Below, in pieces: positions 2,227-25,434 of a stretch of DNA of 34,162 bases. The stretch lies in assembly GCF_003334315.1 (NCBI RefSeq), contig NZ_QOWR01000050.1; one strand, written 5' to 3'. This DNA comes from Escherichia coli (lineage in GTDB: Bacteria; Pseudomonadota; Gammaproteobacteria; Enterobacterales; Enterobacteriaceae). Every line of letters begins with the position of its first letter. Position 1 is the first letter of the stretch. The position numbers were made by a program, and so were the translations under genes. Below the pieces are notes generated by a model. The model was not told the DNA's origin and did not search any database. It was given only the letters and a program-made list of their open reading frames with translations.

Positions 2227-2817
2227 TTACTGTTTCGGTCGCAGATTCTCATCAAATACCAGGCGTTTCCTGCCAGGTTCAATTTCCCGCAATGGCTCGA
2301 CTTGATGTAACGTCTGCTTACAGCGTGTCACCAGCACCTGATACTCATGCGTACCCTGCTTTTTCCATGCCAGCTCCTGCTCACTAAGTTCACGAATCGC
2401 TTTCGCCGGGCTGCCGACAATCAGGTAATTAGCAGGCATTTCTGCTTTGGCTTTCACAAATGCGGATGCGCCAACAATGCTGTTCTCGCCAATCACCGCA
2501 CCGTCCATCACTACCGCGTTCATTCCCACTAATGCATTGCGGCGGATAATGCAGCCGTGAAGGATAGCGCTATGACCAATATGTCCATCTTCTTCAACGA
2601 CAGTATCCTGCTCGGGAAAACCGTGCATAACGCAATTATCCTGAATGTTCGCGCCATCTTTCACCACGATACGACCAAAATCGCCACGCAGACTGGCATT
2701 TGGCCCAACGTAAACGCCCTTGCCGAGAATAACATCGCCGATCAATACCGCTGTCGGATGGACAAAACTCTCTTCTGGCACAACCGGAGTCAGACCGTCT
2801 ATCTGATAAATTGGCAT
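2227..2817 (-). CDS. paaY: Phenylacetate degradation protein PaaY (hexapeptide-repeat, gamma-carbonic-anhydrase-like thioesterase), 196 aa
   Basis: 196-aa ORF with left-handed beta-helix hexapeptide repeats (…[29 protein letters not shown]…); overlaps the paaX 3' end by 19 nt; last gene of the paa cluster. Confidence 0.85.
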
Positions 2818-3749
2818 AACGCCTCCTGTTCAATATTCAAGCCGCCAAAACGTTGAAAATACAGGCTTCCCGGCGCAGGCAGTTCACCGACCGAGGTTTC
2901 ACCTTTTTCACTAACGAACGCTAAAGCAGCAGGCGCTACGCGCTGATAAATGTTGATACACAGCTGACGTGCCGTATGCCCTGCCCAGTGTGCCGGAAGC
3001 AACTCCTCCGGCAACAATGGGTCTTTAAGGACGACACGGCGATAAAAATGGATCAGTAAAAGCTGAATATGAAATGCCCGCTCCGGGGTTAACTCGTCTG
3101 CCGCCTCTTTTAACAGCGGCACCAGCGGGCGGAATGACTGAATAAAGGTTTCGTACATGGCATTTTGTTCAGTTAAATGCCAGCACTCTTCTACTCTGGC
3201 ACGCAGTGCTGCGCGAGAAAGCGCCAGTGGTATTTGCGCTTCAAAACAAATCACGTTATCCGCCACCCCCGCTTCATGCAAAAGTGCCTGTACATCGGCC
3301 AGTTTTTGCGACGGCGATGCCATCAGGCTGGGTGCCAGTGCGCCAAAACCTTGCCAGATCAACTGCTTTTTGACATCAGCCAGCGTCGTTTTATCTAAAC
3401 CTTCCGAGAGCAACAGGAGCCATTTACCATCCCATGCAGGTTGCTCTGCGCGATAAATTTTACTTTCTGCCCGTCGCGTCAGGCGCAAGCCTTTATCACT
3501 GAGGCTATAGAAACTGCGTCGCCCGATGCGGGAAACATCCAGCCAGCCTTCTTTATTAAGACGAAACAAAGCGGTGCGCACGAAACGCTCACCAAATCCC
3601 AGCCCTTCCAGCAAAGCAGCCAGACTACCCAACCAGATTTCACCACCACGATGGGAAAGCGAATCACCATACAGAGAGGAGATCAAAGATGTGCCACTGA
3701 CCGGAACAGCGTTTACAGCATGTTGGATAAAAGTATCAAGTTTACTCAT
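2799..3749 (-). CDS. paaX: Phenylacetyl-CoA-responsive transcriptional repressor PaaX, 316 aa
   Basis: 316-aa ORF ([31 protein letters not shown]…) immediately upstream of paaY and downstream of paaK, the position and length of PaaX. Confidence 0.85.
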
Positions 3750-3810
3750 TCGCTTCAGTCTGTTGTTATTGTTGTGATTTATGAATCATAGCACAGGTCG
3801 TATCGACTTC

Positions 3811-12431: not shown

Positions 12432-13361
12432 TTATGCGACCTTACGGGCATGTTGTTTTTGTGCATGGGCCAGCGCTGCTTCCCGTACCCAGGTACCTTC
12501 TTCCCAGGCTTTACGTTTGGCGTCGAGCCTCTCCTGATTACAAATTCCGCGACCGTTAATTACTTCGTTAAACTCCTGCCAGTCGATCTCACCAAAGCGG
12601 TAGTGACCGCTTTCAGTGTCAAAATGCAGATCCGGGTCAGGAACGGTCATACCGAGCATTTCAACCTGTGGAACGGTGTTATCCACGAAACGCTGGCGGA
12701 GTTCGTCGTTGGTGAAACGTTTGATTTTCCAGGTGAGACTTCTGGCGCTGTTTGGCGAGTTATCATCGTTTGGCCCGAACATCATTAAGGCTGGCCACCA
12801 GAAACGGTTAATGGCGTCTTGCAACATCTGCTTTTGAGCTTCGCTGCCCTGCGCCAGTGCCATGCAGGCTTCAAACCCCTGACGCTGGTGAAAACTCTCT
12901 TCTTTGCAGATTTTCACCATTGCTCTGGCATACGGGCCATAAGAAGTGCGGCATAACGCCACCTGATTGACGATCGCTGCGCCATCCACCAGCCAGCCGA
13001 TAACACCGATATCAGCCCAACTCAATGTCGGATAATTAAAGATGGAGGAATATTTCATCCGTCCGTCGAGCATTTTTTGGTAGATGTCTTCTCTGGCGCA
13101 GCCCAGTGTTTCGGCGGCGCTATAGAGATACAGACCATGACCGGCTTCATCCTGCACTTTGGCCAACAGAATGGCTTTACGCCGCAAGGTTGGTGCGCGA
13201 GTGATCCAGTTACCTTCAGGCAACATACCAACAATCTCGGAGTGCGCATGCTGCCCAATCTGGCGGATCAATGTCTTTCGGTAAGCATCGGGCATCCAGT
13301 CCTGTGGCTCGATAGCCGTTTCCTGGGCTATCCGTTGCTCAAAGCGTTCTTCTTGGGTCAC
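12432..13361 (-). CDS. paaA: Ring-1,2-phenylacetyl-CoA epoxidase catalytic subunit PaaA, 309 aa
   Basis: 309-aa ferritin-like di-iron protein; first gene of the paaA-K operon, divergent from paaZ. Confidence 0.9.
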
Positions 13362-13402
13362 GTCATCACCTTTACGATTCCAGTTTTCGTGAATTAATTA
13401 AA

Positions 13403-13417
13403 AACACGAATCACATT
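13403..13417 (-). promoter_or_regulatory. PaaX operator box in the paaA promoter region
   Basis: Reverse complement AATGTGATTCGTGTT matches the 15-bp PaaX consensus WWTRTGATTCGYGWT (recalled from the literature) at every position; lies 42 bp upstream of the paaA start. Confidence 0.6.
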
Positions 13418-13587
13418 GCTTTATGAAAGTTACACAGTGGTTAACTAAAATCACAAATTTTGTATGTTTGAACTGTGACGGATTTCGCACCCTATTTTTA
13501 TAACTCATTATTTATCAGTGCATTAATGTTTTTAGTAGTTGATATACAGATCGCATAGTTAACATTTCGTTAAAATACGCCTTGCCT

Positions 13588-13602
13588 TTTATGATTCGTG
13601 AT
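13588..13602 (+). promoter_or_regulatory. PaaX operator box in the paaZ promoter region
   Basis: TTTATGATTCGTGAT matches WWTRTGATTCGYGWT at every position; lies 44 bp upstream of the paaZ start, in inverted orientation to the paaA-side box. Confidence 0.6.
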
Positions 13603-13645
13603 TTAACTATTAGCAACAGAAATGTGAAACATCTGGAGAGTAGCG

Positions 13646-15691
13646 ATGCAGCAGTTAGCCAGTTTCTTATCCGGTACCTGGCAGTCTGGCCGGGGCCGTA
13701 GCCGTTTGATTCATCACGCTATTAGCGGCGAGGCGTTATGGGAAGTGACCAGTGAAGGTCTTGATATGGCGGCTGCCCGCCTGTTTGCCATTGAAAAAGG
13801 TGCCCCAGCCCTTCGCGCGATGACCTTTATCGAACGTGCGGCGATGCTTAAAGCGGTCGCTAAACATCTGCTGAGTGAAAAAGAGCGTTTCTATGCTCTT
13901 TCTGCGCAAACAGGCGCAACGCGGGCAGACAGTTGGGTTGATATTGAAGGTGGCATTGGGACGTTATTTACTTACGCCAGCCTCGGTAGCCGGGAGCTGC
14001 CTGACGATACGCTGTGGCCGGAAGATGAATTGATCCCCTTATCGAAAGAAGGTGGATTTGCCGCGCGCCATGTACTGACCTCAAAGTCAGGCGTGGCAGT
14101 GCATATTAACGCCTTTAACTTCCCCTGCTGGGGAATGCTGGAAAAGCTGGCACCAACGTGGCTGGGCGGAATGCCAGCCATCATCAAACCAGCTACCGCG
14201 ACGGCCCAACTGACTCAGGCGATGGTGAAATCAATTGTCGATAGTGGTCTTGTTCCCGAAGGCGCAATTAGTCTGATCTGCGGTAGTGCGGGCGACTTGT
14301 TGGATCATCTGGACAGCCAGGATGTGGTGACTTTCACGGGGTCAGCGGCGACCGGACAGATGCTGCGAGTTCAGCCAAATATCGTCGCCAAATCTATCCC
14401 CTTCACCATGGAAGCTGATTCCCTGAACTGCTGCGTACTGGGCGAAGATGTCACCCCGGATCAACCGGAGTTTGCGCTGTTTATTCGTGAAGTTGTGCGT
14501 GAGATGACCACAAAAGCCGGGCAAAAATGTACGGCAATCCGGCGGATTATTGTGCCGCAAGTATTGGTTAATGCTGTCAGTGACGCTCTGGTTGCGCGAT
14601 TACAGAAAGTCGTGGTCGGTGATCCTGCTCAGGAAGGCGTGAAAATGGGCGCACTGGTAAATGCTGAGCAGCGTGCCGATGTGCAGGAAAAAGTGAACAC
14701 ATTGCTGGCTGCAGGATGCGAGATTCGCCTCGGTGGTCAGGCGGATTTATCAGCTGCGGGTGCCTTCTTCCCGCCAACCTTATTGTACTGTCCGCAGCCG
14801 GATGAAACACCGGCGGTACATGCAACAGAAGCCTTTGGCCCTGTCGCAACACTGATGCCAGCACAAAACCAGCAACATGCTCTGCAACTGGCTTGTGCAG
14901 GCGGCGGTAGCCTTGCGGGAACGCTGGTGACGGCTGATCCGCAAATTGCGCGTCAGTTTATTGCCGACGCGGCACGTACGCATGGGCGAATTCAGATCCT
15001 CAATGAAGAATCGGCAAAAGAATCCACCGGGCATGGCTCCCCACTGCCACAACTGGTACATGGTGGACCTGGTCGCGCAGGAGGCGGTGAAGAATTAGGT
15101 GGTTTACGGGCGGTGAAACATTACATGCAGCGAACCGCTGTTCAGGGTAGTCCGACGATGCTTGCCGCTATCAGTAAACAGTGGGTGCGCGGTGCGAAAG
15201 TCGAAGAAGATCGTATTCATCCGTTCCGCAAATATTTTGAGGAGCTACAACCAGGCGACAGCCTGTTGACTCCCCGCCGCACAATGACAGAGGCCGATAT
15301 TGTTAACTTTGCTTGCCTCAGCGGCGATCATTTCTATGCGCATATGGATAAGATTGCTGCTGCCGAATCTATTTTCGGTGAGCGTGTCGTGCATGGGTAT
15401 TTTGTGCTTTCTGCGGCTGCGGGTCTGTTTGTCGATGCCGGTGTCGGTCCGGTCATAGCTAACTACGGGCTGGAAAACTTGCGTTTTATCGAACCCGTAA
15501 AACCAGGCGATACCATCCAGGTGCGTCTCACCTGTAAGCGCAAGACGCTGAAAAAACAGCGTAGCGCAGAAGAAAAACCAACAGGTGTGGTGGAATGGGC
15601 GGTAGAGGTATTCAATCAGCATCAAACCCCGGTGGCGCTGTATTCAATTCTGACGCTGGTGGCCAGGCAGCACGGTGATTTTGTCGATTAA
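13646..15691 (+). CDS. paaZ: Bifunctional oxepin-CoA hydrolase / 3-oxo-5,6-dehydrosuberyl-CoA semialdehyde dehydrogenase PaaZ, 681 aa
   Basis: 681-aa protein with an N-terminal aldehyde dehydrogenase domain and a C-terminal MaoC-like hotdog hydratase domain; GGAGAG ribosome-binding site before the ATG. Confidence 0.9.
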
Positions 15692-24444: not shown

Positions 24445-25434
24445 ATGAAACTCGCCGTTTATAGCACAAAACAGTACGACAAGAAGTACCTGCAACAGGT
24501 GAACGAGTCCTTTGGCTTTGAGCTGGAATTTTTTGACTTTCTGCTGACGGAAAAAACCGCTAAAACTGCCAATGGCTGCGAAGCGGTATGTATTTTCGTA
24601 AACGATGACGGCAGCCGCCCGGTGCTGGAAGAGCTGAAAAAGCACGGCGTTAAATATATCGCCCTGCGCTGTGCCGGTTTCAATAACGTCGACCTTGACG
24701 CGGCAAAAGAACTGGGGCTGAAAGTAGTCCGTGTTCCAGCCTATGATCCAGAGGCCGTTGCTGAACACGCCATCGGTATGATGATGACGCTGAACCGCCG
24801 TATTCACCGCGCGTATCAGCGTACCCGTGATGCTAACTTCTCTCTGGAAGGTCTGACCGGCTTTACTATGTATGGCAAAACGGCAGGCGTTATCGGTACC
24901 GGTAAAATCGGTGTGGCGATGCTGCGCATTCTGAAAGGTTTTGGTATGCGTCTGCTGGCGTTCGATCCGTATCCAAGTGCAGCGGCGCTGGAACTCGGTG
25001 TGGAGTATGTCGATCTGCCAACCCTGTTCTCTGAATCAGACGTTATCTCTCTGCACTGCCCGCTGACACCGGAAAACTATCATCTGTTGAACGAAGCCGC
25101 CTTCGAACAGATGAAAAATGGCGTGATGATCGTCAATACCAGTCGCGGTGCATTGATTGATTCTCAGGCAGCAATTGAAGCGCTGAAAAATCAGAAAATT
25201 GGTTCGTTGGGTATGGACGTGTATGAGAACGAACGCGATCTATTCTTTGAAGATAAATCCAACGACGTGATCCAGGATGACGTATTCCGTCGCCTGTCTG
25301 CCTGCCACAACGTGCTGTTTACCGGGCACCAGGCATTCCTGACAGCAGAAGCTCTGACCAGTATTTCTCAGACTACGCTGCAAAACTTAAGCAATCTGGA
25401 AAAAGGCGAAACCTGCCCGAACGAACTGGTTTAA
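24445..25434 (+). CDS. ldhA: Fermentative NAD-dependent D-lactate dehydrogenase LdhA, 329 aa
   Basis: 329 aa starting MKLAVYSTKQYDKKYLQQVNESFGFELEFFDF…, with the NAD-binding motif GVIGTGKIG of the D-isomer-specific 2-hydroxyacid dehydrogenase family. Confidence 0.95.
   Translation: MKLAVYSTKQYDKKYLQQVNESFGFELEFFDFLLTEKTAKTANGCEAVCIFVNDDGSRPVLEELKKHGVKYIALRCAGFNNVDLDAAKELGLKVVRVPAYDPEAVAEHAIGMMMTLNRRIHRAYQRTRDANFSLEGLTGFTMYGKTAGVIGTGKIGVAMLRILKGFGMRLLAFDPYPSAAALELGVEYVDLPTLFSESDVISLHCPLTPENYHLLNEAAFEQMKNGVMIVNTSRGALIDSQAAIEALKNQKIGSLGMDVYENERDLFFEDKSNDVIQDDVFRRLSACHNVLFTGHQAFLTAEALTSISQTTLQNLSNLEKGETCPNELV

Follow-up and report, generated by a model that had tools for sequence, protein, structure and literature searches.

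The two 15-base boxes that lie between the divergent paaA and paaZ genes in a 34,162-base stretch of Escherichia coli DNA (the window) are very probably the high-affinity halves of bipartite PaaX operators, which would control the Pa promoter of the paaABCDEFGHIJK operon and the Pz promoter of paaZ. On the arrangement of motifs, each 15-mer appears to be the stronger of the two parts of an operator, its TGATTC core being paired over a distance of 27-28 nt with an inverted GAATCA-like hexamer. The presence of PaaX sites between paaA and paaZ is already known and is ordinary biology, and a preliminary description of this DNA was correct to label it so, as the PaaX system is described in a review (PMC9493321). 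What we add here is that the match of the boxes to their consensus is circular, that a second hexamer lies outside the 15 bases first assigned to each site, and that the window also carries an intact paaX gene with a probable PaaX site in front of it.

The control region that contains both boxes is 284 bp long. It separates paaA (12432-13361, minus strand, with a GTG start at 13361), the first gene of the paaABCDEFGHIJK operon, from the divergent paaZ (13646-15691, plus strand, with an ATG at 13646), and both genes were placed by the open reading frame list and by the annotation of the nearest genome. According to that annotation the gene order is pdxI, paaY, paaX, paaK to paaA, paaZ, tynA, feaB, feaR and onwards. 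The repressor gene paaX (2799-3749, minus strand) was identified by profile, structure match and annotation: its 316-aa product scores 408 bits against TIGR02277, the NCBIfam equivalog model for PaaX (cutoff 264.6), and matches PDB 8A39, the solved E. coli PaaX chain, with 685 bits over all 316 residues. Because the paaX reading frame is intact and its match to 8A39 is full-length, the regulator that is expected to read the boxes is present. The neighboring paaY is likewise intact and above its profile cutoff. The paa cluster is variably present within E. coli: the 401 bases around the boxes were matched in 3132 of 5426 complete genomes (58%), at 99.5% identity in the best case and at 95-99% in the majority, and three copies of the paaA-paaZ control region are plasmid-borne.

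The Pa box, AATGTGATTCGTGTT, occupies 13403-13417 on the minus strand (the plus strand reads AACACGAATCACATT), with its TGATTC core at 13408-13413 (GAATCA on the plus strand), and the Pz box, TTTATGATTCGTGAT, occupies 13588-13602 on the plus strand, with its core at 13592-13597. The preliminary description had reported that both boxes match, at all 15 positions, the 15-bp sequence WWTRTGATTCGYGWT, which we take to be the wording of the PaaX recognition consensus. Our pattern search of both strands of the window agrees, and returns these two boxes as the only exact matches, although this agreement is not independent evidence for the assignment. The distances and the inverted orientation that had been claimed hold as well: counted to the first base of the start codon, the Pa box ends 42 positions from paaA and the Pz box 44 positions from paaZ, and each box, read 5' to 3', points to its own gene. 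When up to three mismatches to WWTRTGATTCGYGWT are allowed, the window holds 17 matches against 17.6 expected, and because this is the chance rate, only the exact matches stand out.

The circularity of the match becomes apparent from the boxes of K-12 MG1655, where Pa reads AATGTGATTCGTGTT and Pz reads TTTATGATTCGCGAT. Merging these two sequences by IUPAC codes yields W W T R T G A T T C G Y G W T, exactly the consensus given above, and evidently the consensus was derived from the Pa and Pz sites of K-12-type strains. Because it is a merge of orthologous K-12 boxes, a match at 15 of 15 positions in another E. coli is a statement of orthology and no independent test. The Pa box is the same in the window and in K-12, and the Pz box is one base apart, with a T at position 12 (13599) in the window where K-12 and the majority of the E. 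coli strains sampled have a C. This T still fits the consensus only because Pa happens to have a T at position 12.

Evidence that does not run in this circle comes from the DNA beyond the boxes. The E. coli PaaX binding sequence has been given as TGATTC(N27)GAATCA (Kim et al. 2004, per PMC9493321), and both boxes extend into a pattern of this kind. The Pa operator spans 13375-13413 on the minus strand and reads CGATTC-N27-GAATCA on the plus strand, with one mismatch. Its partner half-site (13375-13380, minus strand) is GAATCG on the paaA strand (CGATTC on the plus strand); 27 nt separate it from the Pa core, and the paaA GTG follows 14 nt further on. The Pz operator spans 13592-13631 on the plus strand and reads TGATTC-N28-GAAACA, again with one mismatch; the probable partner half-site, GAAACA (13626-13631, plus strand), matches GAATCA at 5/6 positions and begins 28 nt after the Pz core. 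Of the four half-sites in the two operators this is the weakest-supported, and we infer from the sequence that it is the hexamer that partners the Pz box. Across the whole window, a search for TGATTC-N26-28-GAATCA with at most one mismatch returned the Pa and Pz operators only, where 0.3 matches were expected from 200 Markov simulations. The centers of the half-sites are 33-34 bp apart, or ~3.1-3.2 helical turns, a distance that would place both half-sites on the same face of the DNA. The 15-mer can therefore be kept as the stronger half of each operator but not as the operator itself, since the operators reach beyond the boxes, to 13375 at Pa and to 13631 at Pz.

Several other matches were set aside. 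A bipartite match with an N24 spacer at 25158-25193 lies within ldhA, in coding sequence and at the chance rate, and we treat it as chance. We treat in the same way the two-mismatch bipartite matches inside pdxI, tynA, feaB, ydbH, ldhA and uspF, which are also in coding sequence (10 observed versus 4.8 expected). Within the control region, TTTGTGATTTTAGTT (13443-13457) has three mismatches to the 15-mer; we rejected it as a PaaX half-site because other genera, which have TTGGGGTT there, show no TGATTC, and because it overlaps the putative Pa -35 element.

The alternative that survives best, though we consider it improbable, is that the contiguous 15-bp box by itself makes up the whole PaaX operator and that the distal hexamers are irrelevant. 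Both boxes do match every position of the consensus, and Ferrandez and co-workers reportedly described a 15-bp imperfect palindromic motif in 2000. The first of these points loses its force through the circularity of the consensus, and the pattern of conservation argues against the alternative as a whole. A scan with PaaA, taking one genome per species, gave 80 loci, and we aligned the intergenic region of the window with those of 26 other Enterobacteriaceae loci (27 sequences). In this alignment the TGATTC cores of the Pa and Pz boxes (13408-13413 and 13592-13597) are both invariant, at 2.0 bits per column. The inverted hexamer before paaA (13375-13380) follows at 1.92 bits, being GAATCA in most genera and GAATCG in E. 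coli, and the hexamer 3' of the Pz box (13626-13631) has 1.43 bits. The non-core positions of the two 15-mers (positions 1-4 and 11-15) average 1.16 bits per column, with 0.8-1.1 in the flanks of the Pa box, and are thus barely above the remaining intergenic DNA at 1.01 bits; the spacers between half-sites have 0.72 bits. Most genera have A, not G, at position 11 of the 15-mer, and positions 12-13 are free to vary.

The distribution of matches among loci points the same way. TGATTC-N26-28-GAATCA/G, perfect or one-off, stands directly 5' of paaA in every Enterobacterales locus examined. Nearly all of these loci have a perfect TGATTC-N26-28-GAATCA there, and the distal hexamers which this alternative would dismiss are invariant or nearly so and held at a fixed spacing of 26-28 nt. 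At the place orthologous to Pz, most Enterobacteriaceae loci have TGTTWC/TGGTTC-N28-GAATCA. The 15-mer, by comparison, has a single exact match among the sites of the 26 other Enterobacteriaceae loci, and even at up to two mismatches it fails on many orthologous sites. Variation within E. coli is of the same kind: in eight strains the variable positions are confined to the flanks, with none inside any of the four hexamers, and natural strains break the 15-mer itself, at position 3 of Pa (AACGTG..., giving AACGTGATTCGTGTT in N2512, EC261 and 6629) and at position 13 of Pz (...GCAAT, giving TTTATGATTCGCAAT in HS-02). The review, finally, gives the bipartite sequence as the binding site (PMC9493321). 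The preliminary identification of the boxes as PaaX sites is well founded, given their location in the E. coli paaA/paaZ region, the intact paaX, the review and the invariant TGATTC core, and it is the bipartite reading of these sites that we carry forward. As to how common the window's versions are, its 53-nt Pz operator occurs exactly in 434 of the 2864 complete E. coli genomes with a match (about 15%), and its 53-nt Pa operator in 1713 of 2836. Two SNPs are private to the window: 13586, within the -35-like TTGCCT, is C in the window and T in seven other strains and K-12, and 13419, near the putative Pa start, is C in the window and T in other strains.

By tblastn, a divergent paaZ/paaA pair with a downstream paaX is found in Enterobacteriaceae, in Providencia, Xenorhabdus and Serratia, and in Acinetobacter and Psychrobacter, and 21 Bacteroidota loci lack paaX. 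In 20 of these 21 loci we found no full hexamer pair at up to two mismatches, and the remaining one had a weak match. In Acinetobacter and Psychrobacter (L042, L045-L060), whose PaaX is ~39% identical, the inverted hexamers are TGATAC and GTATCG; the pair flanks a TTGAC(T)/TTGAT -35-like element 5' of paaA, and TATGATACGT adjoins paaZ. The two-part layout is thus much as in Enterobacteriaceae, with an altered half-site. The spacing of this pair is N28 by hand count in L042 only, and automated scans indicate a shorter spacing in L050-L059. In Serratia, Providencia and Xenorhabdus, GTATCA is invariant on the Pz side. In some genera (L016, L018, L022, L026, L027) a third GAATCA lies inside the Pa spacer, in the arrangement TGATTCACA..TGTGAATCA..GAATCA, a hint of an additional half-site or of an alternative pairing. 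One locus, L005, comes from a metagenome-assembled genome labelled Bacillota; its paaA and paaK are 94-95% identical to those of E. coli and it has an Enterobacteriaceae-type Pa operator, so that mis-binning or contamination with an enterobacterial contig is the probable explanation.

A third probable operator lies in front of paaX, at 3751-3788 on the minus strand. It consists of TGATTC (3788->3783), a spacer of 26 nt and GAAGCG (3756->3751), ends 1 nt before the paaX ATG, and has two mismatches, both of them in the proximal half-site (GAAGCG, 4/6 match); the distal TGATTC, 34 nt before the ATG, is intact. The 15-mer scan at up to three mismatches did not detect this site, which by hand count has five mismatches to the 15-mer. 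At the orthologous place other Enterobacteriaceae have a perfect TGATTC-N26-GAATCA, ending immediately 5' of the paaX ATG, in contrast to the degenerate proximal GAAGCG of E. coli. PaaX is known to repress its own promoter, Px (PMC9493321), and in having a TGATTC and, across 26 nt, an inverted partner, this site resembles the one at the Px of paaXY (Fernandez et al. 2014, per PMC9493321). The position of 3751-3788 fits this published autorepression, and we regard the site as a candidate for a weaker third operator. Within the 5' coding sequence of paaX there is also a two-mismatch match to the 15-mer, ATGGTGATTCGCTTT (3656-3670, minus strand), which has the same orientation as the TGATTC of Px, 123 nt upstream.

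Conserved blocks in the control region allow the promoters to be placed provisionally. The putative Pa core promoter (13427-13456, minus strand) has a -35 element TTGTGA (13456->13451), an 18-nt spacer and a -10 element TAACTT (13432->13427). The putative Pz core promoter (13582-13610, plus strand) has a -35 element TTGCCT (13582-13587) and a -10 element AACTAT (13605-13610), of which TTG and AACTAT are conserved. A generic sigma-70 scan returned a single promoter-like site, which does not exceed the chance level; both putative promoters fell below its threshold. If Pa starts near 13420, as this layout would predict, the whole Pa operator would lie in the 5' leader, at about +4 to +46. At Pz, where the putative start is near 13617, the 15-mer box (13588-13602) fills 15 of the 17 nt of the putative promoter spacer.

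Other elements may share the region. The consensus for CRP is TGTGA-N6-TCACA, and a class I activator sits ~61.5 bp upstream of the start. The CRP-like site TGTGACGGATTTCGCA (13474-13489), with a TGCGA-N6-TCACA that is conserved in Enterobacteriaceae in a 28-sequence alignment, lies ~61.5 bp upstream of the putative Pa start, and we take it to be a putative CRP site on its likeness to that consensus and on what Ferrandez et al. (2000) reportedly described. Midway between paaA and paaZ, in a stretch that is poorly conserved across genera, TATCAGTGCATTA (13513-13525) matches the IHF-type consensus WATCARNNNNTTR. A conserved block, GATCGCATAGTTAACATTTCGTTAAAA (13545-13580), lies 5' of the putative Pz -35 element and appears as TTAAT..TTAAC..TGTGATC in other genera; it may be a site for an activator or a nucleoid protein.

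Such neighbors raise the possibility that the hexamers are kept not by repressor binding but by promoter elements, by a ribosome-binding region or by an RNA hairpin in the paaA leader. The Pa partner hexamer directly precedes and abuts the paaA Shine-Dalgarno, which could also constrain it, the Pz box lies within the putative promoter spacer, and the Pz partner GAAACA is near the paaZ ribosome-binding region, so that something other than PaaX may keep it conserved. The inverted repeats might, in principle, also pair in mRNA. As a full account, however, we find this very unlikely: the same pair of hexamers recurs with the same spacing at three promoters (Pa, Pz and Px), and, apart from the one weak match in Bacteroidota, the full pair is limited to lineages that carry paaX. 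Folding argues against it too, since for 43 Pa operators the mean z relative to spacer shuffles was -0.09 for the sense and -0.42 for the antisense strand. A spacer hairpin, whether in the leader RNA or as a DNA cruciform, had been a candidate on account of inner inverted repeats in several genera, and it was rejected because these 43 operators show no excess folding stability. That the boxes are chance matches in an AT-rich intergenic region, where matches with three mismatches do occur at the chance rate, is barely credible, given two exact matches to WWTRTGATTCGYGWT within 284 bp against zero across 100 dinucleotide-preserving shuffles and given the conservation of the orthologous sites across genera.

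The bipartite PaaX operators of the window closely follow those already described. The Pa and Pz operators of strains K-12 and W (Ferrandez, Garcia and Diaz 2000; Kim et al. 2004; Fernandez et al. 2014, per PMC9493321) belong to the orthologous locus and have the same TGATTC-N27/28-GAATCA-like architecture, and in E. coli K-12 the repressor gene is downstream of paaK, as it is here. The differences from K-12, namely T versus C at Pz position 12 and the SNPs at 13419 and 13586, amount to nothing different in kind. The PaaR operators of paa genes in Burkholderia, Thermus and Corynebacterium serve the same function, phenylacetyl-CoA-responsive repression, but PaaR is of the TetR type, a regulator family unrelated to PaaX, and its operator is a compact 14-15-bp palindrome (ACCGACCGGTCGGTT; CNAACGNNCGTTNG) rather than a pair of hexamers ~27 nt apart; palindromes of that kind have no bearing on this locus.

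PaaX represses Pa, Pz and Px, and its inducer is phenylacetyl-CoA, not phenylacetate (PMC9493321). Px and Pz are repressed by competition between PaaX and RNA polymerase, and Pa in a different manner (Fernandez et al. 2014, per PMC9493321). The layouts proposed here agree with that account, both in polymerase competition at Pz and in another mechanism at Pa. When phenylacetyl-CoA is absent, PaaX, encoded 10 kb away at 2799-3749, would bind the Pa and Pz operators. At Pz, where the box lies between the putative -35 and -10 elements, bound PaaX would exclude RNA polymerase. At Pa, where the operator would lie 3' of the start and in the leader, PaaX might instead act after polymerase has bound, or as a roadblock. 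Phenylacetyl-CoA, the product of PaaK, would then free PaaX from the DNA so that both operons are induced, and the weaker third operator before paaX could provide autoregulation.

For this strain, the features gathered here suggest that the phenylacetate cluster has normal regulatory wiring, in which the repressor is intact and the two divergent operators are accompanied by an autoregulatory site and a CRP-like site. The preliminary description had taken the boxes as a check that the cluster's regulation is intact, and the intact paaX and paaY, the two operators, the Px-type site and the CRP-like site are consistent with this. For annotation, a consensus scan with the 15-mer is useful for close relatives of K-12 only, and it misses the site at the paaX promoter even in E. 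coli, whereas the bipartite hexamer pattern recovers sites throughout Enterobacterales. A broader reading, toward which we lean only tentatively and hold at somewhat less than even chances, is that across Gammaproteobacteria the informative unit is the inverted hexamer pair, ~33 bp from center to center, and not the 15-bp box, that the specificity of the half-sites has co-evolved with PaaX, and that the proximal half-site of Px has decayed in E. coli. If this is true, the decayed proximal half-site would weaken autorepression of paaX in E. coli, and the change from C to T that the window shows in its Pz box (position 12) would be neutral.
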